11,053 nt of DNA from a virus (taxonomy: Duplodnaviria; Heunggongvirae; Uroviricota; Caudoviricetes): positions 1-11,053 of the IMG/VR virus record IMGVR_UViG_2541047882_000001; one strand, 5' to 3'. Below the pieces are notes generated by a model that ran no database searches, was not told the origin of the DNA, and was given only the letters and a program-made list of their open reading frames with translations. Each line of letters begins with the position of its first letter. The stretch's first letter is position 1. The translations under genes were made by a program, and so were the position numbers. Shown here one piece after another: positions 1 through 11,053 of the stretch.

Positions 1-1014
1 CTAACACTCTGCATGGACATTTTGTGGATCTTTTTTGCTGATTTTTAACTTAATGAACTGAGGAACGCTTGCGTCAATTGTAGTGTGATATTGAAATAAG
101 GGGTATTTTCTATCACGATTATTGATTGAATAACTTATTATATCCTTCATAAGTAGCACAAAGTCAGTGGTGAAATTATATTCAAGTATCTCAACCATTT
201 TTAAATGAAAGTGCCAGTATGATTGTAGATATTTTTTTATATCCAATTCATCCGAAAATTTTGTTTTTAAGAATAAAATATATTCATCTTCACCGTGGGT
301 TGAGCACTGATAGAGTTTTTCAATATCTAAACGCTTTAGTCCATAAAGGTTGTGCAATAATTCTAATAGTTTTTCAATGCTATGTATATGGGTGTATAAC
401 TCTGTATAGTCATTAATTTCTTCTTTTTTAAATAGTTCAACTAGTTGGCACCAAATTAATTCTGCATTTTGTATGTAGTCCTTGGAAGCATCAAAATTAT
501 TATTAGTAGTTGAAGCATAAGGATAGCATTTACGATATGTAGAATAACAATTTTCAAATTCTAATTTTGCGTTCTTTTTTATCAAAGGAATGTCTAAAGA
601 TTCAAGGTGTTGTAATGCTTCTATAGTGTTTTTTCTATGGGTATAGAAAAAATCCACTTTGTTTTTCTTTTCTGCTTCTTTGATTTGTTTATCTGTTTGT
701 ATTGTTCGATGAATATTATTGACAACTACTCCCAGTGGAATCGATAAAGATAAAACAGCTAAAGGAAGTTTACTAATGTTTAGGAAATTATTAAATCCTT
801 CCGTATCGATTTGAACATTGTGACCATTCCATGCAACAAATCCGAGCAGAAAAAAACTAATTATTGGAATTGCCAGTGCGGCTTTGAATAATGGTTGATG
901 CGTAAGAGGTTCAGCATTCATCTTGAATGCATTTATCTTGAATAAATAACCCATGTAAACAACCACAAATAAAATGTTAAATAAAACGATGCATTGATTG
1001 ATTGTAAGGTTCAT
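1..1014 (-). CDS. Hypothetical membrane-anchored protein (337 aa): three predicted N-terminal TM helices plus a ~230-aa helical soluble domain of unknown function; AT-rich cargo gene directly downstream of the integrase
   Basis: Uninterrupted 337-codon ORF in very AT-rich DNA, where stop codons are otherwise frequent. ATG at 1014..1012 lies 6 nt after the int stop, with a GAG-containing SD-like stretch just upstream; the stop codon TAG is at 3..1. Hydrophobic segments: CIVLFNILFVVVYMGYLF, LFKAALAIPIISFFLLGFVAW, LPLAVLSLSIPLGVVV. I recognise no catalytic motif. Confidence 0.6.
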   Translation of the reverse strand: MNLTINQCIVLFNILFVVVYMGYLFKINAFKMNAEPLTHQPLFKAALAIPIISFFLLGFVAWNGHNVQIDTEGFNNFLNISKLPLAVLSLSIPLGVVVNNIHRTIQTDKQIKEAEKKNKVDFFYTHRKNTIEALQHLESLDIPLIKKNAKLEFENCYSTYRKCYPYASTTNNNFDASKDYIQNAELIWCQLVELFKKEEINDYTELYTHIHSIEKLLELLHNLYGLKRLDIEKLYQCSTHGEDEYILFLKTKFSDELDIKKYLQSYWHFHLKMVEILEYNFTTDFVLLMKDIISYSINNRDRKYPLFQYHTTIDASVPQFIKLKISKKDPQNVHAEC

Positions 1015-1020
1015 TTTTCT

Positions 1021-2034
1021 CTAAATTATTAATGATAAAGGATTTTTTGTTATTACATCTTCAAGATGCGTTGGCGCAAAGTGAGCATAGATCATAGTCA
1101 TTTTTATATCTGAATGGCCTAAAATCTCTTTAAGAACAAGTATGTTTCCGCCATTCATCATAAAGTGGCTGGCAAATGTATGTCGTAATACATGTGTACA
1201 CTGGCCTTCAGGCAGTACAATCCCCGCTTTAGCTACAGTACGCTCGAAAGTTTTACGGCACGGGGCAAACAACTGGCCTCGTTTTTTTGGTATCTCGTTA
1301 TAAAGCTCTTTTGAGATAGGTATAGAACGTACCTTTCTACTTTTCGTATTTTTGTAAGTGATACGGTATGGCGTAACTTGAGAGCCTTCTAGATTTTCCG
1401 CTTCACTCCACCTTGCACCGGTAGCAAGGCAAATCTTAGTGATGATGAGAACGTGCGGGCTATTAGATTCGGATAAATATTGTAAAAGAGTTTTGATTTC
1501 TTCTGAATAAAGAAAAGAAACCATTTTTTCATCAACTTTAAAGGTTGGAATTCCTGCCAATGGATTTGGAAGCGACCAATGGCCTAGTTTTTTTAGTGTA
1601 CCAAATACGGCAGATAGATAGCGTTGCTCATGATTTACTGTCCGTGGTTGTATCGGCATACAACGTCCATTTATATCCGGAATTTCACCCTTTAAGCGAC
1701 CTTCTCTGTATTGGCTGAAATCCGCCGCTGTGATTTGTGCTGCAATCGGATTTCCCATACCAGCACAAATACCTTTCAATTTCGACATCATGCGGTCGGC
1801 ATCTGCTAATGTTCGACCATATAGATCATGCCACTGCTCAATCAGATCTGATAAGCGTCGATTATCTTGCTTCTCACCCAGCCAGGGTTTGCCTTCCATT
1901 TCGCTGGCGATATATTTTTCATATGCCAGTGCTTCACCTTTCGTGGCGAATTTTTTACGAATACGCTTACCTTTCACCCCATTAGGGCGAAGATCGCACA
2001 ACCATTCACCGCTTTCGATTTTCCGAACTGCCAT
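1021..2034 (-). CDS. int: Phage tyrosine integrase, P2/186 family
   Basis: 337-aa ORF. The N-terminus (MAVRKIESGEWLCDLRPNGVKGKRIRKKF...) parallels the P2 Int N-terminus. The C-terminal catalytic region has LATGARWSEA (Arg box), HVLRHTFASHF (H-x-x-R) and a MIYAHF-like tyrosine motif. Start ATG overlaps the cI stop (TAATG). Confidence 0.9.
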   Translation of the reverse strand: MAVRKIESGEWLCDLRPNGVKGKRIRKKFATKGEALAYEKYIASEMEGKPWLGEKQDNRRLSDLIEQWHDLYGRTLADADRMMSKLKGICAGMGNPIAAQITAADFSQYREGRLKGEIPDINGRCMPIQPRTVNHEQRYLSAVFGTLKKLGHWSLPNPLAGIPTFKVDEKMVSFLYSEEIKTLLQYLSESNSPHVLIITKICLATGARWSEAENLEGSQVTPYRITYKNTKSRKVRSIPISKELYNEIPKKRGQLFAPCRKTFERTVAKAGIVLPEGQCTHVLRHTFASHFMMNGGNILVLKEILGHSDIKMTMIYAHFAPTHLEDVITKNPLSLII

Positions 2035-2609
2035 TACTCACTCACTAAGTATGTGGCCACAACCTTCCCAATCAATTGCACATCAGATACGTCGCAATCA
2101 ACTGGATATTTTCCCCAGTCAATCCGCAATTTGTTACCAGGAAGTAACGTCAATTCTTTGATGCTTTTCGTACCAGAATACTCAAGAAGGAACTTACCGT
2201 CCGTAACAGGGTAATCAGCGATATCTACGAAAAATCTCACTGAACTATCACTGATTATTTGAAGTTCACCTTTGTAGTTTGGGAGTATTGTCTTATCGAA
2301 AATTACGGATGCTTGGCGAACCATATCAGACCCTTCGATTTTATAGGCTGAGATTCGAGTGGTATCACTTGCCACCTGATCAAATCTAACGCCATCACCA
2401 GTGGTTAGCCAGTAGATAGAAGCTCCTGTTTCTAGAGCACAAAGTAGTACTAAATCAGCAGGAAAGTTGTCACGCATGATACGTGTACTTAAAGCACTTG
2501 GAGACATTCCAAGATAATTTGCTAACTGCATTCTGGATGTAAAACCATAAGCCTCACACACCCTTTCGATTGCTTCGCGTGCACCTGTCTTGATGTTGTA
2601 AGTTGTCAT
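2034..2609 (-). CDS. cI: 186-type CI-like phage repressor (N-terminal HTH, C-terminal oligomerisation domain)
   Basis: 191 aa from the internal Met at 2609 (MTTYNIKTG...). HTH-like segment GFTSRMQLANYLGMSPSALSTR. Size matches 186 CI (~190 aa). Lies directly upstream of int on the same strand and divergent from cox, the P2/186 lysogeny-module arrangement. The 38 upstream in-frame codons of the full ORF overlap the operator region and look non-protein-like, so the 2609 start is preferred. Confidence 0.75.
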   Translation of the reverse strand: MTTYNIKTGAREAIERVCEAYGFTSRMQLANYLGMSPSALSTRIMRDNFPADLVLLCALETGASIYWLTTGDGVRFDQVASDTTRISAYKIEGSDMVRQASVIFDKTILPNYKGELQIISDSSVRFFVDIADYPVTDGKFLLEYSGTKSIKELTLLPGNKLRIDWGKYPVDCDVSDVQLIGKVVATYLVSE

Positions 2610-2760
2610 GTTTGTAGTTCGCAACTGTTGACAAACGACAATTTTAAAAATAATCTCCGAATTGTTTCGAATGTAGATATTGATAATTGTCGTTTGTAGA
2701 TTATTAACAACTATTGTCACCAACGCTCATTAGTGACAAACGAAGGAGGAATTTTGCCGT
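2602..2760. promoter_or_regulatory. Divergent cI / cox promoter-operator region with repeated TTGTC/GACAA half-sites
   Basis: Rightward promoter candidate: TTGACA (2628..2633), 17-nt spacer, TAATCT (2651..2656). Perfect 13-bp inverted repeat ACAAACGACAATT (2631..2643) / AATTGTCGTTTGT (2686..2698). Direct repeat TGACAAACGA at 2629..2638 and 2734..2743. Inverted repeat TTGTCAC (2714..2720) / GTGACAA (2733..2739). A further TTGTCA overlaps the cI start codon (2603..2608). Confidence 0.5.
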
Positions 2761-2949
2761 ATGCAAACTAAAGCTGCAACACATTCAGAAAGCAGGTGGG
2801 TACCTCTGAAAACGTTTTGCGACAGGGTTGAAATAAAACTGCGCACGGGACGTTACTGGGTACACACTGGCAAACTCAAAATCAAACCTAAAAGCAAACC
2901 GAAAGAACATGTGTTTGTAGATTGGCTTGCGTGGAACAGTGAAAAGTAA
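2761..2949 (+). CDS. cox: Cox/Apl-like small regulator and excisionase-type protein
   Basis: 62-aa ORF divergent from cI-int, with AAGGAGG SD upstream. C-terminal EHVFVDWLAWN resembles the EYWVYLPAWN segment of P2 Cox as I recall it. Position between cI and cII matches Apl/Cox in 186/P2. Confidence 0.55.
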   Translation: MQTKAATHSESRWVPLKTFCDRVEIKLRTGRYWVHTGKLKIKPKSKPKEHVFVDWLAWNSEK

Positions 2950-2992
2950 TCATCACTTTTAGTGATTTTGAGATTGGGATGGAAGAAAAACA

Positions 2993-3496
2993 ATGTTTGA
3001 TTACCAGACCTCTAAACATGCGCACTTTGATGCGGCTTGCCGAGCATTTGCAATTGAGCACAATCTTGAAGATGTGGCCGCTGCCGTTGGTATGAGGCCG
3101 CAGATCCTGCGCAACAAACTGAACCCAGCACAACCGCACCGCCTGACCTGTGATGAGCTTTTGGCTATCACGGATTACACCGAAGATGCGCGTTTGCTTG
3201 ATGGAATGTTAGGTCAGATTAACTGCCTTCCATCCGTGCCGGTGAACAATGCCACAGAAGGCAACATGCAGTTGTGCGCACTGAGTGCCACAGCCAGTGT
3301 GGGCGCGATTGCTGGGGAAGCCGTATCAACTGGCCATATGACTGCCGCCCGCCGTACTCAAATTCTGGATCGTGCCCGCGATGCAATCCGTAGCTTATCC
3401 GTGCTGGCTTATACCGTTGAAAGCCGTATTCACTCTGCGCCTGTTCTGGCCGCTGCGGTGGATCTGGCCACAACCAACGCCACCGGCCTGATGTGA
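2993..3496 (+). CDS. cII: Phage regulatory protein CII family (186 CII-like)
   Basis: 167 aa, close to the ~169 aa of 186 CII. Contains the VGMRPQILRNKLNP motif characteristic of this family as I recall it. Sits immediately after the cox/apl-like gene. Confidence 0.65.
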   Translation: MFDYQTSKHAHFDAACRAFAIEHNLEDVAAAVGMRPQILRNKLNPAQPHRLTCDELLAITDYTEDARLLDGMLGQINCLPSVPVNNATEGNMQLCALSATASVGAIAGEAVSTGHMTAARRTQILDRARDAIRSLSVLAYTVESRIHSAPVLAAAVDLATTNATGLM

Positions 3497-3505
3497 GGGA
3501 ACACC

Positions 3506-3679
3506 ATGAAAGCGTTTGTCACTTACCTGAAAAAAGAATCACCAGACATGCAGTTGCCGAGTGGTTCAACGGGATGGATAGAACTTCCGAACGGTCAGCG
3601 CTGGAACCCTGGCCACATGTACAAATTCAATGGCCAGCAGCCGCGTCGCCCATGGTGGCGTCGTCTGATGGGGCTATAG
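3506..3679 (+). CDS. Small hypothetical protein (57 aa), absent from the supplied ORF track
   Basis: ATG at 3506 preceded by GAGGGA SD (3495..3500). Translation MKAFVTYLKKESPDMQLPSGSTGWIELPNGQRWNPGHMYKFNGQQPRRPWWRRLMGL, stop TAG at 3677..3679. Different frame from the overlapping GTG-initiated 3493..3936 track ORF, whose first part looks non-coding. Confidence 0.4.
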   Translation: MKAFVTYLKKESPDMQLPSGSTGWIELPNGQRWNPGHMYKFNGQQPRRPWWRRLMGL

Positions 3680-3687
3680 GGGGCGTT

Positions 3688-4087
3688 ATGGCGATTAGCC
3701 AGGAACAGCAAAAGCGCGGGTTGGAGCATTGTAAAAGAATGCGTCTTCAGATCAACCCAGCCTACAGCGATGCGGGGGACTGGTGGGACAACTTGACACC
3801 AGAGTGGCGCGGCGTGGTGCTTCATGCTGCTGCTGTTACTTCAGGTGCCGGGGTATTTAAAGCCCACTTAAGCAAATGCTGCTGGCAGGAACTTTATGAA
3901 CGTCTGGGATACCCTGCGTCTGGCCGTGGATTTTAATCTGTTCGTGAAGGGCGAATTTAAAACCCGTACGGAAGATTACCGGCAACTGGGGGAATACTGG
4001 GAATCACTGGGTGGTACCTGGGGCGGGCGCTTCAAATCCAGACCGGATGGCAATCATTTCAGTCTGGAACATAACGGGGTGCGCTGA
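3688..4087 (+). pseudogene. Probable inactivated M15-family peptidase (endolysin-like) gene split across two frames
   Basis: Frame 1: ATG 3688 with AGGGGG SD, 82 codons ending at 3936, containing a QELYERLG segment. Frame 2: 3896..4087 encodes ...RLAVDF...LGGTWGGRFKSRPDGNHFSLEH, matching the A-x-D and WGG...D-x-x-HF-x-LE signatures of the VanY/M15 (LAS) zinc peptidase C-terminal half. The expected S-x-H-x-x-G segment with the first zinc-ligand His is missing at the frame junction (about 3910..3922). The combined ~400 nt is the size of a ~130-aa M15 endolysin. Confidence 0.4.
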
Positions 4088-4425
4088 TGAGCAGCGGGCA
4101 GTGGCTGGTTGTGGTGGCGCTGGCGTTTGTCTGGGGCTGGCTGACCGCTGACTGGCGGCGTGACAGCTTAGAGCTGGCAATCAATACAGCGGCGCAGGTG
4201 GCCGGTAATGAATCGCGAAAAGTAATGCAGGGCATTGCCAGTGATTCGGCCAGAGTGCTGGAAGATAAACTGGAGGCGTTAAAAAATGTGGCACCGCGTG
4301 AAATACGCACGGAAATACTTAAGCCTGTTTTTACTAATCGCTGCCTGTCTGATGAGTTTGTCAGCATGTACAACAGCGCCGCAGCCGGTACCGAACGTGC
4401 GTTATCAGGAAAACCTGAAAACTAA
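4087..4425 (+). CDS. lysB: LysB-like i-spanin (Rz-equivalent lysis protein)
   Basis: 112 aa. N-terminal TM anchor LVVVALAFVWGWL followed by a charged, helical periplasmic region. Start overlaps the upstream stop (TGATG). Contains the embedded/overlapping lysC gene, as in P2. Confidence 0.7.
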   Translation: MSSGQWLVVVALAFVWGWLTADWRRDSLELAINTAAQVAGNESRKVMQGIASDSARVLEDKLEALKNVAPREIRTEILKPVFTNRCLSDEFVSMYNSAAAGTERALSGKPEN

Positions 4426-4585
4426 ATGCACCACGCAGCTGCCGCGCCTGAACGGTACGACAGGAAAAGACGCAACGGAATTACTGACAATTTATCCTGA
4501 AATTTATGGGCAGTGTGCTGCGCGTCATAATCAGTTAGTGGACGAAATTAATTTAAGAGAGAGTATGAGTGATGGAACAAATTAA
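4286..4585 (+). CDS. lysC: LysC-like o-spanin (Rz1-equivalent outer-membrane lipoprotein)
   Basis: 99 aa in an alternate frame overlapping the 3' third of lysB. GGAGG SD 9 nt upstream. Lipoprotein signal: basic n-region MWHRVKYARKY, hydrophobic core, lipobox L-S-A-C, then a Pro-rich mature N-terminus CTTAPQPVP. Confidence 0.65.
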   Translation: MWHRVKYARKYLSLFLLIAACLMSLSACTTAPQPVPNVRYQENLKTKCTTQLPRLNGTTGKDATELLTIYPEIYGQCAARHNQLVDEINLRESMSDGTN

Positions 4586-4829
4586 ACTGTGTGTTTGTGG
4601 TGTAGATATTGTTTTTGAGCCAAATCAGACCGCCTACAACAAATTTATTAATGAAATGGCGATGGATAATAAAGTTGCCCCGGCACATAACTATTTGACA
4701 CGAATTGTGGCAACGGAAAGTAAAGAAGCACTGGCAGAAGTATTAAAACGTCCGGGTGCAGCGCTTCAACTGGTTGGCAAAGTAAATGATATTTATGCGC
4801 CTGAACTGGAAATTGAAGTAAAAAACTGA
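4572..4829 (+). CDS. E: Phage tail assembly chaperone gpE (P2 E-like)
   Basis: 85 aa from ATG 4572 (the track ORF starts 3 nt earlier at GTG). Immediately upstream of the tape-measure gene. Ends at a slippery heptamer, the classic E/E-prime arrangement. Confidence 0.7.
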   Translation: MEQIKLCVCGVDIVFEPNQTAYNKFINEMAMDNKVAPAHNYLTRIVATESKEALAEVLKRPGAALQLVGKVNDIYAPELEIEVKN

Positions 4830-5020
4830 CAAAGCGAGTCCATGAAATTGAAAGGAATGGACTCGAACAATATTTAATTCTCCGCCGTCATTATTTACCG
4901 CATGGTCAGGATTCCGTTGATGATATCGCCGCCGCTATCTGGCTGGACAATCGTCACTGGGAATATACCGGAATAGCCGTGGCCAATGGTGTGGCAAAAG
5001 CATTTAAAGGCACTGAATGA
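4820..5020 (+). CDS. E-prime extension of the E+E-prime -1 frameshift product (slippery site A_AAA_AAC at 4820..4826)
   Basis: From AAAAAAC, the -1 frame is open for 66 codons: KKLTKRVHEIERNGLEQYLILRRHYLPHGQDSVDDIAAAIWLDNRHWEYTGIAVANGVAKAFKGTE. It ends at TGA 5018..5020, overlapping the T start codon (ATGA). The RRHYLPHGQ...IWLD...ANG segment resembles the conserved P2 GpE extension as I recall it. Confidence 0.65.
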   Translation, partial: KKLTKRVHEIERNGLEQYLILRRHYLPHGQDSVDDIAAAIWLDNRHWEYTGIAVANGVAKAFKGTE

Positions 5021-6864
5021 AACAATTAGATTTTACATTGAGCCTGATTGATAAATTATCCCGCCCGTTAAAACAGGTGCAGGGTAACGTCACTGGCTTT
5101 GCGGAAAAATCAAAAGCGGCCTTTATGCAGATCGGTGGCGGTGTACTGGCGCTGGCTGGTACCGGGATGGCGATCAAAGGCGCGTTATCACCGGCAATTG
5201 AAATGTATGACGCGCTGAATGATGCCGCCGCAAAAGGGATTGAGGATTCCGCGCTTAAGACAGTTCAGCGTGATGCCCTGCGCTTCAGTACAACCTATGG
5301 CGCCAGCGCGGTGGAGTTCGTTAAATCCACGGAAAATATTAACGCTTCCATTGCGGGGCTGACGGGTAATGAATTGCCGAAGGTGACGAAAGTCGCCAAT
5401 ACCCTGGCTTTTGCGCTTAAGTCCACAGCGGCGGACACGGCGGAATTTATGGGGCAGATGTTCGGTAACTTTTCAGCCGATGCCGCCAGACTGGGCAAGG
5501 TTGAATTTGCCGAGCAGCTGGCAGGCAAGATGGTTTATATGCGCAAAACCTTTGGCACAGAAATGGCTACTATCAAGGATTTGATGGAAGGTGCGCGTGG
5601 CGTCGGGACTAACTACGGCGTGGGACTGGATGAACAGCTGGCCGTGCTGGGGCAACTTCAGCGGACACTGGGAACGGAAGCCAGCAGCGCCTATGAAGGG
5701 TTTATGACCGGTGCGATTGATGGCGCTAAAAAGCTGGGGCTGTCCTTTACTGACTCCACCGGCAAAATGCTGTCCATGCCTGAAATGCTGATCAAGTTGC
5801 AGGGCAAATATGGCAAAAGCCTTGAAGGGAACCTGAAAGCCCAGGCGGAACTGGATGCAGCCTTTGGTGACAGTTCGGCAGTGGTTAAACAGCTTTACGG
5901 CAATGTCGCGTTACTTCAGCGGAACATCACCGAACTGGGCGGCGCGGACGGTCTGAAGCGTACCCAGGAAATGGCACAAAAAATGGTTAAGCCGTGGGAT
6001 CGCTTTGTGCAAATCCTGAAAGCCATTCAGACCGTGATCGGGCTGACGCTGATCCCGGTGCTGTATCCGGTTCTGAATCGCCTGGCTGATATGGGGCAGA
6101 CCTTTGCCCGCTGGATGCAGCTATTTCCTAACATTGCCCGTGTGATTGGTTATGCGTCGATGGCACTCCTGAGCTTTGCCGCCGTGGGTGCGGTGGCCAA
6201 TATCGTGATGGGGGTTTCCAGATTCATCATGATGGGATTGCGCGGGATCTGGGTGGCGTTAACGGCGGTTACGAAAATCTACACGGCCACTGTCTGGCTG
6301 GCGCAAATGGCGGTAATCGCCTGGAATACCACGCTGAAGTTTTTGCGCGGTGCGTTACTGGCGGTACGCATGGCCGCAATAATGGCCGGAATTGGTATCA
6401 ACCTGATGAGCTGGCCGATCCTGCTTGTGATTGGTGCCATTGCACTGCTGGTTGCCGGTTGTTATCTGCTGGTTAAGCACTGGGACACGATAAAAACAGC
6501 GGTGGTGAATACCGAAGCCTTCCAGACATGTGCCGCCGTGGTGAAATGGCTGGCGGGGATCTTTGCTTCAGCCTGGCAATATATCAGTGAAGGATGGAAC
6601 AGCTTTATTTCTTTGCTGACAGGATTTTCACCGTTTGAGGCGTTAAAGGGGATGGCCTCCGACATTATGTCGCTGTTTGATAATGTCTGGAAGTCAATCA
6701 AAGGGGGATTTCTTAAGTCGTGGAACTGGATTGTTCAGAAACTGAATAAAATTCCCGGCGTGGATATTTCACTGGCCAGTGAAACCACGCAGCCATTAAC
6801 CGGAAATACACTGTCAACGGGTGGTGATTTAAAAGGTGTGGATAACTGTCCATATTGGCAGTGA
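5017..6864 (+). CDS. T: Phage tail tape measure protein (P2 gpT-like), probably C-terminally truncated or frameshifted
   Basis: 615-aa ORF. N-terminal region parallels P2 gpT (MKQLDFTLSLIDKLSRPLKQ... versus the gpT N-terminus as I recall it). Long helical N-terminal half, central hydrophobic/Gly-Ala-rich stretch, Trp-rich C-terminal part. Shorter than P2 gpT (~815 aa), and an overlapping ORF continues in another frame to 7042. Confidence 0.85.
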   Translation: MKQLDFTLSLIDKLSRPLKQVQGNVTGFAEKSKAAFMQIGGGVLALAGTGMAIKGALSPAIEMYDALNDAAAKGIEDSALKTVQRDALRFSTTYGASAVEFVKSTENINASIAGLTGNELPKVTKVANTLAFALKSTAADTAEFMGQMFGNFSADAARLGKVEFAEQLAGKMVYMRKTFGTEMATIKDLMEGARGVGTNYGVGLDEQLAVLGQLQRTLGTEASSAYEGFMTGAIDGAKKLGLSFTDSTGKMLSMPEMLIKLQGKYGKSLEGNLKAQAELDAAFGDSSAVVKQLYGNVALLQRNITELGGADGLKRTQEMAQKMVKPWDRFVQILKAIQTVIGLTLIPVLYPVLNRLADMGQTFARWMQLFPNIARVIGYASMALLSFAAVGAVANIVMGVSRFIMMGLRGIWVALTAVTKIYTATVWLAQMAVIAWNTTLKFLRGALLAVRMAAIMAGIGINLMSWPILLVIGAIALLVAGCYLLVKHWDTIKTAVVNTEAFQTCAAVVKWLAGIFASAWQYISEGWNSFISLLTGFSPFEALKGMASDIMSLFDNVWKSIKGGFLKSWNWIVQKLNKIPGVDISLASETTQPLTGNTLSTGGDLKGVDNCPYWQ

Positions 6865-7042
6865 GAGTATCAACGCCCTGACCATGATGCTGGATACCAT
6901 TGATTTACTGGCAGATCTGGCGCAGCAATGCGCGAGCCATTCGCACCCCACCGTTGGGACGCCAACCAATGCCGCCGCGTTCACACAGACGGCGACGAAA
7001 GCCGGGCAGACCCGGAGCAAGTACCAGGGGATCATTGCTTAA
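6836..7042 (+). pseudogene. Possible out-of-frame continuation of the tape-measure gene (remnant)
   Basis: 68-codon ORF in the +1 frame relative to T, overlapping the last 29 nt of T. It ends where GC-normal phage DNA gives way to AT-rich DNA. No downstream tail genes U or D are present. Confidence 0.3.
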
Positions 7043-7139
7043 TGCTGGTATTCATGTGATAAGTTGAGACGTTCTGGACTTCCTGATGGCTGTAGCTCTG
7101 TTGTTGGGTAGTCCAGAAAAATTCGAAATAAAATGGGTA

Positions 7140-7661
7140 TCAAGTAGTGGTAATTGTATGGCTTTTGCGGGTTATATAAACGCTATTGGCGGGTACGTCT
7201 CTGTTAACGAATGACATTGCGCCAATTGTCACGTTATCACCAATGGTTAGATCATCACCGATGATGCACGAATTTGCACCAATCTCCACATTGTCTCCGA
7301 TCCTGATGGCTTTGATTCCCTCAACCGTTTTTAATCCAATTGTTGTGTTTTGTCGGATACGCACATTCTTACCAATCACAGCCTGGGGGCAAATGACTAT
7401 TCCAACGAAATGATAAATTTTGAATTTTTCCCCTATCTGTGCCCCCAACCCAATATCAGTATTGTATTTTGAAACAAGTCTCCTATGGATTCTTCGCGCC
7501 CATTTCACTCTTGCTCTCCCACCCTGGCAGTAAAGGCAATTCGCTATTCTCCACCAACACATGAACCTGTATCCGGGCTGTCTCCAGCAACGTAGTATGA
7601 TTCTTCTCCATGAGAATTTTTTACTGTTGCTCAGTATGTCCGCGCACAATAACTGCTTCAT
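7140..7661 (-). CDS. Hexapeptide-repeat (left-handed beta-helix) acetyltransferase, serine O-acetyltransferase CysE/WcaB-like
   Basis: 173 aa from ATG 7661, which has a GAGGAA SD immediately upstream (the track ORF offers an earlier Met at 7709). Tandem imperfect hexapeptide repeats IGKNVRIRQNTTIG, IGDNVEIGANSCIIGDDLTIGDNVTIGAMSFV, then DVPANSVYI. N-terminal RIANCLYCQG segment typical of the small SAT-like family. Lies in AT-rich DNA. Confidence 0.75.
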   Translation of the reverse strand: MKQLLCADILSNSKKFSWRRIILRCWRQPGYRFMCWWRIANCLYCQGGRARVKWARRIHRRLVSKYNTDIGLGAQIGEKFKIYHFVGIVICPQAVIGKNVRIRQNTTIGLKTVEGIKAIRIGDNVEIGANSCIIGDDLTIGDNVTIGAMSFVNRDVPANSVYITRKSHTITTT

Positions 7662-8481
7662 TTCCTCGTAGTGAGATATTTTGCTGCTGCTCATAAATTG
7701 TCCGTCCAAATAATCCTGACGGTTATCGTAACATGGGAATGGTCTGATTTTCTGCTAACAGCACAACACTAGGCTATGTGGTTCGGTCTGATAGTGGGCT
7801 TCTTCATCCAAAATGATTTAGTTGGGTTACCAACACAAATCTATTTCTCACATCGTCATAGGCGTCACCAGACGCATTTTAAACCCTTTAGTAACAAACC
7901 CTACCCCGCGCACCAAGTGTAAAAGATCCGAAGCGTGGCGTGGCGCTGGTAGGGTCATATGATGGCGAAATAAATCTTTCGCAGACAAAAACGGCGCTAC
8001 ACCGCACCCGCCTGCGGTTTCTGGATCTGGAAATTTTTTCAGTTTTATTTTTCTACAAACCAGACCGCCAGACCGCACCATTACTGGCGGCTTTGCAGAT
8101 AATCAGAACTGAAATGATTGAAAAGAATTTCAGTGTTTTTCACTTTCATGGATCTGTGGAGGATCGAATACAAAATGTAACCAGCAGAAAAATAAGGGGA
8201 AATAATTTTTTTGTGAGTGGGAAGGATCGTTTTTGTTTTCTGGTTGTTTTCGTCGTAGAAAAGCCGAGGCCAGATTTAGCAAGGCATAGGGACAATTAGA
8301 AGGTTCATAGAAAACTGAAAAAACTGCATGCATGTCGTGGAAACTAGCGAGCTAACAATTGCATCGAAATCTAATTTTAATCTTGGAACTTGAGAAAACT
8401 TTTGTCAAATTAGTTGTCGCTTTTTAGTTGTGGATAACCTTCCGATGTTTACTTGGCAGAGCTTACATTAAGGCATTCGAT

Positions 8482-9600
8482 ATGACTGAAAAATTCACCG
8501 CAATTTTGTTAGATACGAGTATCTACGATCAGTACGGATTAAAGCTTGAGAAAGGACTGCTGGGTAAGCTTTCCCAGTTCAGCAGAACCCCGACAACGTT
8601 TTTGATACCGGATGTAATTTACAATGAAGTTAAAAATCATCTTGAAAGAAAAATCAAGACATCACGTGGCTCCCTTGAGAAAGCTTTCGAAGAAGCTGGC
8701 GATCATCTTTTTTTTGATGGAAGCGAACTAAATGATGCAAGAAAAACATTGATTGAAAGCAGAGAAGTTGAAGGATTAGGAAAGAGCAGATTAGACAGAT
8801 TTGTTGGCGTAACAGATGCGAAGGTTCTAACTACAGGGGATTATGTTTCGGTACCTGAACTCCTTGAACGATACTTCTCTTCTGAAGCTCCTTTCGCAGA
8901 TACAGGTAAGAAAAAAAATGAGTTTCCCGATGCAATAACATTAATGGCCGTCCAAGCCTGGGCTAAAGAGAATGGTGAAAATGTTCTTGCTGTAGCAAGA
9001 GATGACGACTGGCAGAGATTTTGTATTGATGCTGAGAATTTGCACTATGAACCTGACTTATCAAACGCTTTAGCACACTTCAATGAAGAAACCGCACCTT
9101 ATGAACTAATTGATAACTTACAAAAAGCACTTGCTGAAGGACAAGCCGGTAAATTCTTGCATGATGTTGCTGTACACCTTGAGTCAACCTTTGAAGGATT
9201 TGCACCAGAACAAGAGGCAGATTCATATTTATACTGGGAGGCTGACGGATGCTCAGGTGGATTTGAAGATTTTGAGTTTACAGATAACCACTTCACTGTC
9301 ATCGACAAGGATGAAAACTGGGTTGTTATAGAAGCATTTGCAGACATTTCACTTTACGCAGAAGGTGATTTCTCCCTATCGGTTTACGATTCATTCGACA
9401 AAGACCATGCTTACATGGGGTCAATTACCAAGCGAGCCGAGGAAACATATACATCCAGAATACTTATCACAATCTCCGGAGACTTATCAGGTTCTATAGA
9501 TGATTTGACCGTTGACGATGTGGAAGTGATCGAGCGTCCAACGTCGATGGATTTTGGGGAGCTTGAATTAGAGTATGAGCCTGACGAGCAAGACTTGTAA
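8482..9600 (+). CDS. PIN-like nuclease domain protein (DUF4935-like N-terminus) with acidic C-terminal domain of unknown function
   Basis: 372 aa from ATG 8482 (AAGG SD 8 nt upstream; the track ORF begins at an upstream TTG). N-terminal ILLDTSIY (PIN Asp-Thr motif), FLIPDVIYNEV, then FPDAITLMAVQAW ... VLAVARDDDW acidic cluster. C-terminal ~170 aa highly acidic (EADGCSGGFEDFEFTDNHF ... DDLTVDDVEVIE ... EYEPDEQDL). AT-rich composition. Confidence 0.65.
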   Translation: MTEKFTAILLDTSIYDQYGLKLEKGLLGKLSQFSRTPTTFLIPDVIYNEVKNHLERKIKTSRGSLEKAFEEAGDHLFFDGSELNDARKTLIESREVEGLGKSRLDRFVGVTDAKVLTTGDYVSVPELLERYFSSEAPFADTGKKKNEFPDAITLMAVQAWAKENGENVLAVARDDDWQRFCIDAENLHYEPDLSNALAHFNEETAPYELIDNLQKALAEGQAGKFLHDVAVHLESTFEGFAPEQEADSYLYWEADGCSGGFEDFEFTDNHFTVIDKDENWVVIEAFADISLYAEGDFSLSVYDSFDKDHAYMGSITKRAEETYTSRILITISGDLSGSIDDLTVDDVEVIERPTSMDFGELELEYEPDEQDL

Positions 9601-9690
9601 CAACTATGATTAGGCACTATCGCTGTCGCCATTTTGTCGCCAACTCGATTGCAGTTTCGTTGTAACTAATTGAATTTAATCTTTTTTATT

Positions 9691-9724
9691 TTCAGGCAAC
9701 AAAAAACCCATCATCTTTAGAGCA
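9691..9724. terminator. Bidirectional intrinsic terminator between the convergent PIN-like and Abi-like genes
   Basis: A6 (9691..9696), perfect 8-bp stem CCCATCAT (9697..9704) / ATGATGGG (9714..9721) with a 9-nt loop, then TTT (9722..9724). The A-run and T-run flanks allow termination in both directions. Confidence 0.6.
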
Positions 9725-9743
9725 TGATGGGTTTATAACTTGC

Positions 9744-10553
9744 TTATTCTTTTTTTTCATCCCACGATTCAAGAATAAACATAGTTAGTGTATGTGCAGC
9801 ATTGATGGCTAATCGTGCGTGTCGGGGCTTGAGATTGTAAATTTTTCGTCCTGCGCCATGAGCTGAACTCGCATGAGTTCTTAGCGAGCCGATACCATCG
9901 GTGAGAGAATATAAGCCGCTCAAAATGCGTTTTAAGTCCTCATCTTCTACCGCTTTAGTGTCAAGACCTAAATGTTCACGAACGGTCTTCCACAAGCCCT
10001 GCAAATCCTGCTTCGCAGGAATCGGTAGGTTTTCATCTGCGATAAAAATTTTAAATGTTGATTCTAATATATTACAGGCTGCTGATACTGCTTCTCTTGG
10101 GTCAGTATGCAAGTTTTCTAAAGCTCTTGCGAATTCCATTTCTACTGCTGGAGTATTACGTTTCTGGATAGCTTCTTTCAAGGAAAGGGATGCTAGTGAT
10201 GCTCCATCAGTAATGTAACCGCCAGTCACATAGTTCAGCCCATAACGACCAAGTAGTTCCGGCATTTTTTTAACAAACTCGACTTTCTTTTTTTCCCACT
10301 CATAGTATGGATTGGCGGGTAACTCTGACTCCATATAGGTTTCGATTAAGCGACCAAGTAAAACTAATGGTTCATCAGATTCTTTATTAATACGCCTTAA
10401 CCATTCGAGAGCTTTAACGTGCTTAGATCCTTCGGGTGGTTCCCCTGGCGCATCAGCATAGGCAAACAAACTATCCAAACTAGCATGGGTTTCAGTGCTA
10501 GCAACGAAGTCAGCTACAACAGATATTACAGGTTGAGGTATTGGCCGTCCCAT
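9744..10553 (-). CDS. Abortive infection family protein (Abi_C-like C-terminal domain)
   Basis: 269 aa; ATG 10553 with GGAG SD 6 nt upstream. C-terminal LYSLTDGIGSLRTHASSAHGAGRKIYNLKPRHARLAINAAHTLTMFILESW matches my recollection of the Abi_C signature (R-x-x ... HG ... PRHARLA-x-NAA). AT-rich gene immediately downstream of ssrA. Confidence 0.55.
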   Translation of the reverse strand: MGRPIPQPVISVVADFVASTETHASLDSLFAYADAPGEPPEGSKHVKALEWLRRINKESDEPLVLLGRLIETYMESELPANPYYEWEKKKVEFVKKMPELLGRYGLNYVTGGYITDGASLASLSLKEAIQKRNTPAVEMEFARALENLHTDPREAVSAACNILESTFKIFIADENLPIPAKQDLQGLWKTVREHLGLDTKAVEDEDLKRILSGLYSLTDGIGSLRTHASSAHGAGRKIYNLKPRHARLAINAAHTLTMFILESWDEKKE

Positions 10554-10610
10554 ATCTACTCCATCAGCGGGTCAATTTTGAACTTAGTGGACGCAAAGTG
10601 GACATTGCAT

Positions 10611-10648
10611 AAAAAAAGGGACTACGTTTTCACGTAACCCCTTGTTTT
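10611..10648 (-). terminator. ssrA intrinsic terminator
   Basis: On the minus strand, about 10 nt after the encoded CCA end: GGGGTTACGT / ACGTAGTCCC imperfect 10-bp stem (8 pairs) with GAAA loop, followed by T7. Confidence 0.55.
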
Positions 10649-10651
10649 AAT

Positions 10652-11014
10652 TGGTGGAGCTGGCGGGAGTTGAACCCGCGTCCGAAATTCCTACATCCTC
10701 GGTACTACATGCTTAGTCAGTCTTTACATTCGCTTGCCAGCTGCGGACGGACACGCCACTAACAAACTAGCCTGATTAAGTTTTAACGCTTCAACCCCAG
10801 GCAGGGCTTCCACGCGATCTCTTTTGGGTTTGACCTCTCTTGATCCCCGTCCTAAGAGCGGAGGCTAGGGAGAGAGGGCTCTAAGCAGGTTATTAAGCTG
10901 CTAAAGCGTAGTTTTCGTCGTTTGCGACTATTTTTTGCGGCTTTTTACGAGGCCAACCGCCCCTCGGCATGCACCTTGGGTTTCGCAAATCCCGTCGAAT
11001 CCAGAATCAGCCCC
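10652..11014 (-). ncRNA. ssrA: tmRNA (transfer-messenger RNA, SsrA), 363 nt
   Basis: The reverse complement begins GGGGCTGATTCTGGATTCGACGGG and ends GGTTCAACTCCCGCCAGCTCCACCA (tRNA-Ala-like acceptor/T-arm with encoded CCA). Internal tag frame GCA AAC GAC GAA AAC TAC GCT TTA GCA GCT TAA encodes ANDENYALAA-stop (10925..10893). Matches enterobacterial ssrA as I recall it. Confidence 0.95.
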
Positions 11015-11020
11015 AATGTG

Positions 11021-11053
11021 TAAAGGTAAGTATACCAGATTTATGAGCGCCAT
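11021..11053 (-). promoter_or_regulatory. Probable ssrA promoter region (partial, runs off the window)
   Basis: TATACT -10-like hexamer on the minus strand (plus coordinates 11029..11034), about 15-20 nt upstream of the mature tmRNA 5' end. No -35 could be judged because the window ends. Confidence 0.3.

Follow-up and report, generated by a model that had tools for sequence, protein, structure and literature searches.

The subject of this analysis is a stretch of phage DNA of 11,053 nucleotides (nt) (positions 1 to 11,053 of the IMG/VR virus record IMGVR_UViG_2541047882_000001, Caudoviricetes; hereafter the window), in which the coding sequence at 8482–9600 (plus strand, stop codon included) specifies a 372-amino-acid (aa) protein of the DUF4935/PIN_12 (Cosus) family. 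The gene was found to be the second-to-last cargo gene of a partly deleted, HP1/186-like prophage integrated at ssrA in Escherichia coli. Judged from sequence alignment, its product is a bona fide full-length homologue of the integron-borne protein Cosus, belonging to a different clade. We consider it probable that the gene encodes a Cosus-family stand-alone anti-phage nuclease, carried as accessory cargo of the temperate prophage, which would protect the lysogen from other phages. An earlier prediction made from the DNA letters alone (hereafter the original prediction) had put the gene forward as a candidate single-gene defence effector, and this is now the best-supported reading, since the full-length homologue Cosus protects against T7 by itself; no conserved partner gene accompanies the family. 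The frame can also be read from a TTG codon (8428–9600, 390 codons), with the ATG at 8482 internal to it and yielding 372 aa; as the closest homologues are likewise 372 aa long, the ATG at 8482 is regarded as the real start.

A PIN domain of the VapC type makes up the N-terminal half of the protein, and all four acidic residues of its metal-binding site are present. Pfam PIN_12 (PF16289, formerly DUF4935) matches residues 8–177 (8503–9012, plus strand) with 113 bits (E 2.6e-32; curated gathering score 32 bits), the match spanning model positions 1–172 of 172. The predicted catalytic residues D11, E49, D150 and D174 are invariant in an alignment of 51 sequences from two clades, and the acidic motifs LLDTSIY, NEV, FPDAITL and ARDDDW start at residues 9, 48, 148 and 172, respectively. 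An AlphaFold2 model built on the 51-sequence alignment had a mean predicted local distance difference test score of 84.6, and when its N-terminal half was compared with the PDB by Foldseek, VapC2 (3zvk) was matched with a probability of 0.99 and a template modelling score of 0.62 on the target, followed by further VapC matches, 4chg and 5h4h. A PIN fold is thus present in the predicted structure, and the PIN-like fold that had been proposed for the N-terminal ~200 aa is borne out by the Pfam match, the four invariant acidic residues and the VapC-like model. To our knowledge, no structure has been solved for any member of the PIN_12 family. Among PDB entries, 2l6o gave a weak match (E 0.077), with a DDWQRFC motif in common.

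Cosus was described as the product of the integron cassette brc24, which carries a PIN_12 domain, in "Mobile Integrons Encode Phage Defense Systems" (10.1101/2024.07.02.601719). That study found that i) Cosus alone gives complete T7 resistance in E. coli (>10^5-fold, with no escape plaques), ii) protection is seen at both high and low multiplicity of infection, iii) the substitutions T12A, D14A and D96A each cost >10^5-fold of the T7 protection, iv) mutation of the T7 tail protein gp12 allowed partial escape, for which the authors proposed a dual activity, and v) a fitness cost of 11% is incurred when Cosus is strongly expressed from the first cassette position; primers for D153A and D177A mutagenesis are listed in its supplement, and a hexameric assembly of Cosus is predicted by the authors. 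Protection at high multiplicity of infection, together with the partial escape by gp12 mutation, argues that the mechanism is not purely abortive.

The gcu24 DNA as printed in the preprint supplement contains machine-reading errors, but a tblastn search with it was already collinear with the 372-aa protein over both domains. By megablast of a plasmid collection, gcu24 was located on the IncC plasmid pKAZ2 (KR827391.1), in which the clean Cosus sequence is the annotated coding sequence ALG87191.1 (382 aa). BLASTP aligned residues 5–371 of the 372-aa protein with residues 8–379 of Cosus (30% identity, 54% positives, E 6e-63, 97% coverage). Cosus D14, E52, D153 and D177 correspond to D11, E49, D150 and D174 here, all four being invariant in the 51 sequences, and the C-terminal domain alone aligns at 24–28% identity with its invariant motifs kept. 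The two proteins are therefore alike in length class (382 and 372 aa), in their two domains, which align over the whole length and have the four acidic PIN residues and the DSxDxD loop in common, in the net charge of the C-terminal domain (-36 in both) and in being encoded by single genes on mobile elements. They differ in that Cosus is encoded in an integron cassette, whereas the present gene is prophage-borne and belongs to a separate clade. When 139 loci from two pattern scans were divided by clade, 35 fell in the clade of the 372-aa protein (defined as at least 45% identity to it; hereafter the own clade), 9 in the Cosus clade and 95 in neither. The Cosus work has reportedly since been published by Kieffer et al. 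in Science in 2025.

The C-terminal half (residues 200–372; 9079–9597, plus strand) is a family-specific, hyper-acidic alpha+beta domain, which the alignments show to be homologous to the C-terminal domain of Cosus. It contains 25.4% Asp plus Glu and 4.6% Lys plus Arg, with a net charge of -36 and an isoelectric point of 4.05, and was modelled as two helices on a long, curved antiparallel sheet, with a DSxD[KR]D loop and a disordered acidic tail (residues 361–372). The loop (D303-S-x-D306-[KR]-D308) is invariant, and the C-terminal residues invariant in the 51-sequence alignment are A246, S248, F297, D303, D306, L328, G333, E348 and G359. Residues 200–372 matched no Pfam family, no sequence relative in the PDB and no viral model, in agreement with the original prediction of a very acidic domain that could be assigned to no family. 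The predicted fold is marginally NTF2-like. Since a profile search with this domain only recovered PIN_12 proteins and fragments and nothing else, the domain does not seem to be a portable module, within the sensitivity of the search.

The PIN domain would be expected to cleave nucleic acid in a Mg2+-dependent manner, most probably as an RNase like the VapC toxins, and this activity would be needed for protection, as with Cosus D14A (D11 here). VapC toxins of the type II VapBC systems have the PIN fold and the acidic active site in common with the 372-aa protein, and by this analogy the metal-dependent RNase chemistry is probably the same. In contrast, VapC toxins are single domains of ~130–150 aa, whereas the present protein, with its fused C-terminal domain, is nearly three times as long, and VapBC is a two-gene operon with a VapB antitoxin, whereas no VapB gene lies upstream here. 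The C-terminal domain may stand in for the separate antitoxin of VapBC, either restraining the nuclease or mediating assembly, and may couple activation of the nuclease to a phage cue as a regulator or sensor. In CapRel(SJ46), which is encoded by a prophage, a toxin-type enzymatic domain is fused to a C-terminal regulatory domain that replaces a separate antitoxin. The resemblance, that of a single prophage-encoded polypeptide, is by analogy only, the domains being unrelated; the PIN_12 C-terminal domain may act by autoinhibition or sensing. The role proposed for this domain is much less certain than the stand-alone anti-phage nuclease reading. A more specific version, which we regard as doubtful, is that the C-terminal domain is a nucleic-acid mimic or decoy that keeps the PIN domain occluded unless engaged by a DNA- or RNA-binding protein of the phage or by a virion protein that has been injected, the own clade responding to another trigger, and to other phages, than Cosus; if true, a decoy-type C-terminal domain would be a new kind of built-in sensor.

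The original prediction did not recognise this architecture as a described system, but it had been described before. DUF4935 was described as a new VapC-group PIN-like family in 2017, with residues 1–200 forming the PIN domain and residues 201–380 an alpha/beta region without known homologue; its genes were usually monocistronic and no function was assigned (Matelska et al. 2017, PMC5499597). The present protein shows no structural difference from that description, which comprises proteins of ~350–380 aa with an N-terminal VapC-group PIN domain bearing 4–5 acidic residues and helical inserts, a C-terminal alpha/beta region and a monocistronic gene (PMC5499597). "PIN_12" is listed among the contents of the E. 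coli P2 hotspot in the supplement of Rousset et al. (2022), the phrase "PIN domain" not being in the main text, and PIN_12 is not mentioned in Vassallo 2022 or in the 2026 P2/P4 paper. The architecture was known from 2017, its presence in the P2 hotspot catalogue from 2022 and one validated member, Cosus, from 2024/25, and the gene studied here is a divergent member situated in a prophage end. What is added is modest: the link between the Cosus preprint and a prophage-borne clade, the prophage slot common to E. coli and Serratia, the marginal NTF2-like fold of the C-terminal domain, its invariant DSxDxD loop, and the cold-shock fusions and Panacea neighbours described below.

The family is widespread, though patchily distributed. 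A word-indexed search gave 278 clusters, the best 120 of which are 52–96% identical to the 372-aa protein, ~370 aa long and mostly from Gammaproteobacteria. A HMMER search of 1.84 billion cluster representatives gave 2120 at E <= 1e-3, these being clusters at 50% identity from across the bacteria, and 335 at E <= 1e-30; of the 150 best-scoring representatives, nearly all align from about residue 5 to about residue 365 and are about 360–400 aa long. By tblastn the family was found on 46 plasmids, 26 of them conjugative, and pattern scans detected it in 431 species-level genomes and 59 IMG/VR viral contigs. The exact 372-aa protein is present in 74 blocks of the assembly collection, the gene is carried by only one of 5426 complete E. 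coli genomes (LR-51, 93% nucleotide identity), and tblastn of the phage GenBank records gave no match to the 372-aa protein. When the three genes on either side were clustered for 80 species-level loci, no neighbour family recurred in more than ~6 loci, suggesting that the PIN_12 gene is a single-gene unit. It travels alone, without a conserved partner, from one setting to another (prophages, plasmids, integrons and chromosomal sites).

Several of these locations are of the kind used by defence genes, and the association of the family with defence islands is suggestive. The portal gene is the immediate neighbour of a family member at 23 loci (22 IMG/VR contigs of P2-like phages and one Pseudomonas genome locus); two of the 23 belong to the own clade, and most of them also show terminase and scaffold genes. 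The portal-adjacent position in P2-like phages is presumably the P2 old/tin hotspot. In Vibrio cholerae a family gene abuts a filamentous prophage. Some Cosus-clade proteins of 462–467 aa (P0216, P0220, P0226 and P0233) have an added cold-shock domain (PF00313), which would imply binding of single-stranded nucleic acid, and one such relative (L026:6001–7389) sits between a reverse transcriptase and SLATT_5 pair and a gene for an OLD-like TOPRIM/AAA_15 ATPase. A small gene with a SocA/Panacea antitoxin domain follows or adjoins the family member in 4–6 cyanobacterial loci (L144, L149, L160 and L161, at 7408–7878 of the last on the same strand; L158; L082), a hint that family members can be toxic.

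These Panacea neighbours bear on the best-surviving alternative, that the protein is a self-contained toxin stabilising its mobile element, or a stress-responsive RNase, i.e. a fused module resembling a toxin-antitoxin pair. The PIN domain is of the VapC toxin type, the strong expression of Cosus costs 11% of fitness, and the gene is always carried on mobile elements, all of which would fit such a role. Against it, Cosus, the sole tested member, is strongly protective at high as well as low multiplicity of infection, no conserved antitoxin partner exists, and the gene occurs where defence cargo is typically found, at the ends of prophages and next to the portal in P2-like phages. We therefore consider a toxin or stress RNase unlikely, and prefer the reading of the protein as a stand-alone anti-phage nuclease.

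The setting of the gene was examined with the prophage as a whole. In KE701672.1 (assembly GCA_000460335.1), which corresponds to the window, the flanking core genes are 100% identical to those of E. coli K-12. The tmRNA gene ssrA lies at 10652–11014 (minus strand), and its 3' 49 nt, at 10652–10700, constitute an attachment (att) repeat, a second 49-bp copy of which is found ~80 bp to the left of the window (L004:1390–1440; L007:3029–3077). Because of this left copy, window positions 1 to 10651, the Abi_C gene included, are placed inside the ssrA-integrated element; an initial view that the Abi_C gene lay outside the prophage, taken from the end of shared sequence at 9713, was ruled out by the same copy, and position 9713 marks a border between modules within the prophage. 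The distal copy of the ssrA end abuts a P4-type integrase in L007, indicating tandem occupancy of ssrA. The cargo at the right end of the prophage consists of an acetyltransferase gene (minus strand), the PIN_12 gene (plus strand) and the Abi_C gene (minus strand). The original prediction had placed the PIN_12 gene in an integration hotspot at ssrA beside an Abi-like gene: both of these neighbours are present, but the locus is prophage cargo rather than a free-standing islet. Its remark that the gene is AT-rich relative to the phage genes is correct, the G+C content being 40.9% as against 52–54% for the tail and lysis genes; the integrase, cI and the cargo genes near the PIN_12 gene are also low in G+C (40–43%).

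In intact relatives the tail module of a temperate HP1/186-like phage precedes the PIN_12 gene. Among the products of this phage are a CI-type repressor, CP76, Fil, Baseplate_J, a tail fibre and an HP1_ORF34 homologue, and its last gene encodes 567 aa. Compared with L003, the window region 2993–6864 has lost the baseplate-to-tail-fibre module, and the M15 peptidase is reduced to 63 aa and the tape-measure protein to 615 aa (655 aa in intact relatives), with the cargo genes intact. This loss of most of the tail genes would be compatible with the PIN_12 gene being an inert passenger of a decaying prophage, or else a nuclease serving the phage's own cycle in host takeover or processing. However, the open reading frame is intact and identical to copies in complete prophages, and members of the family are also found on plasmids, in integron cassettes and singly in chromosomes. 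The gene is moreover dispensable for the phage, being absent from 47 of the 48 complete E. coli genomes that have a prophage of this type. A passenger or phage-cycle gene is accordingly quite improbable.

The slot at the prophage end proved variable in the six E. coli prophages examined among these 48 genomes, as it is occupied by a serine acetyltransferase gene, an acyltransferase gene, DprA with two unknown genes, a gene for a 411-aa unknown protein, or a gene for a different PIN protein of 470 aa. The last is found at L171:6783–8195 in E. coli mip270_22. The att sites used by these E. coli prophages are mntR, raiA, ybjL and ssrA. In Serratia marcescens the same prophage slot beside ssrA holds a Cosus-clade protein (75% identity to Cosus, 31% to the 372-aa protein). 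A hairpin-containing element, GAACTGAAA(T/A)GATTGAAAAGAATTTCA, lies upstream of the PIN_12 gene in E. coli (8105–8135) and downstream of the Cosus-clade gene in the Serratia prophage (L025, ~9570–9600), and from this difference in position the E. coli and Serratia cassettes were inserted on opposite sides of a conserved phage landmark.

The independence of the PIN_12 gene from its neighbour is best seen in related prophages integrated beside ybjL. There, a 100% identical PIN protein is encoded without an Abi_C gene (L005, L008), and variants at 93–96% likewise lack it (L009–L016, L001). The sequence common to the ssrA and ybjL settings runs from ~8305 to 9713, ending inside the hairpin at 9704–9734. 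As the identical protein occurs in the two settings and the common sequence ends before the Abi_C gene, the PIN_12 gene moves as a one-gene module. The 269-aa neighbour itself (9744–10553, minus strand), the last cargo gene before ssrA, has over its last ~110 residues a match to Abi_C (HEPN-type; E 8.4e-22) and another to the PADLOC AbiJ model in its C-terminal part, its N-terminal 150 residues matching nothing; it was found in none of the 5426 complete E. coli genomes, and is itself a candidate defence gene. In Serratia its place is taken by a 271-aa gene, which on comparison proved unrelated to Abi_C. That the convergent PIN_12 and AbiJ-like genes, which stand side by side in the terminal cargo next to ssrA with one hairpin terminator between them, form a two-gene system is most improbable and largely refuted by their distribution, given the identical and 93–96% PIN proteins without Abi_C, the end of common sequence at 9713, the unrelated gene between the PIN gene and ssrA in Serratia, and the failure to find any Abi_C cluster among the neighbours in 80 species.

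Several observations weigh against the reading of the protein as an anti-phage nuclease of the Cosus kind. Of the three Cosus residues at which mutation impairs defence, D14 is kept (as D11) and two differ here: T12 is replaced by L9 and D96 by S93 (with E92 adjacent), neither T12 nor D96 being kept outside the Cosus clade. The present protein, being 30% identical to Cosus, may differ from it in function and in phage range. Several homologues in Aeromonas and Shewanella are solitary among housekeeping genes and are not in defence islands. PADLOC 2.0.0 (2023), NCBIfam and PHROGs gave no match to the 372-aa protein, although the PADLOC release predates Cosus. Expression of the PIN_12 gene is not assured, the prophage being partly deleted, and a sigma-70 consensus scan upstream of 8482 identified no promoter site; by eye, a weak candidate (CTAACA-18-TTTAAT) can be seen.

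The present results leave the current picture of phage defence unchanged. They allow this gene and ~2000 relative clusters, labelled only "PIN domain-containing protein", to be flagged as candidate Cosus-family defence genes, candidates which the 2023 PADLOC release misses. In the own clade the PIN_12 family can be studied in a native E. coli prophage, with the two clades in one prophage slot, the portal neighbours, the cold-shock fusions, the Panacea neighbours and the DSxDxD loop as experimental handles.

The non-coding borders of the PIN_12 cassette were also delimited. A leader at 8305–8481 (plus strand), near-invariant in the 93–100% relatives and diverging further upstream, is presumed to contain the promoter and ribosome-binding site. 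Within it lie two copies of the heptamer TAGTTGT (8411–8417 and 8425–8431), to which the original prediction had drawn attention as a direct repeat. The repeat exists at these positions but is not conserved, the first copy being TAGTAGT in the 93–96% relatives L009 and L001, and for this reason it is probably a chance or minor feature without meaning. The window contains five copies against 1.14 expected, a number reached in 2 of 200 shuffles. A third copy, inverted (9600–9606, minus strand), overlaps the stop codon of the PIN_12 gene and is altered in LR-51; the gene is thus flanked by the heptamer in opposite orientations. Upstream of the leader, a single open reading frame of 119 codons (7940–8299, plus strand) is called as a gene in some assemblies but not in L005, L006 and L008. 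The region is poorly conserved, and even loci that are nearly identical differ there by indels (in L005, by 2 bases in a T-run), so that this frame is probably non-coding.

Downstream, the 3' untranslated end of the cassette extends from 9601 to 9713 (plus strand), where pairwise alignment shows that identity with the ybjL-integrated relatives stops (~9713). The hairpin AAACCCATCATC...GATGATGGGTTT at 9704–9734, between the convergent PIN_12 and Abi_C genes, is followed by a T-run on the minus strand (z = -3.25 for the fold on that strand) and resembles a terminator acting in both directions. The sequence common to the ssrA- and ybjL-integrated prophages stops at ...AAAAAACCCATCA (junctions of L005, L009 and L001), which in both settings is one arm of a terminator-like hairpin whose far side differs. 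As Cosus is an integron cassette, an attC relic was considered for this region, and positions 9596–9745 were folded on both strands; only the terminator hairpin was obtained, with no canonical R''/R' core sites by eye. An Rfam scan of the window detected the tmRNA alone and no other non-coding RNA.

The remaining cargo gene on the right side (7140–7709, minus strand) encodes a hexapeptide (serine/sugar O-) acetyltransferase like CysE, WcaB and EpsC (phrog_2154), which suggests modification of surface polysaccharide by the lysogen; serine acetyltransferase or acyltransferase genes occupy the same prophage-end slot in other E. coli prophages, as listed above. At the opposite end of the window, positions 1–1014 (minus strand) hold a 337-aa gene of 30% G+C with hydrophobic N-terminal segments, the sole match of which is phrog_17460 (function unknown). 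Situated on the far side of the integrase and adjoining the left att copy, it may be a further cargo gene.

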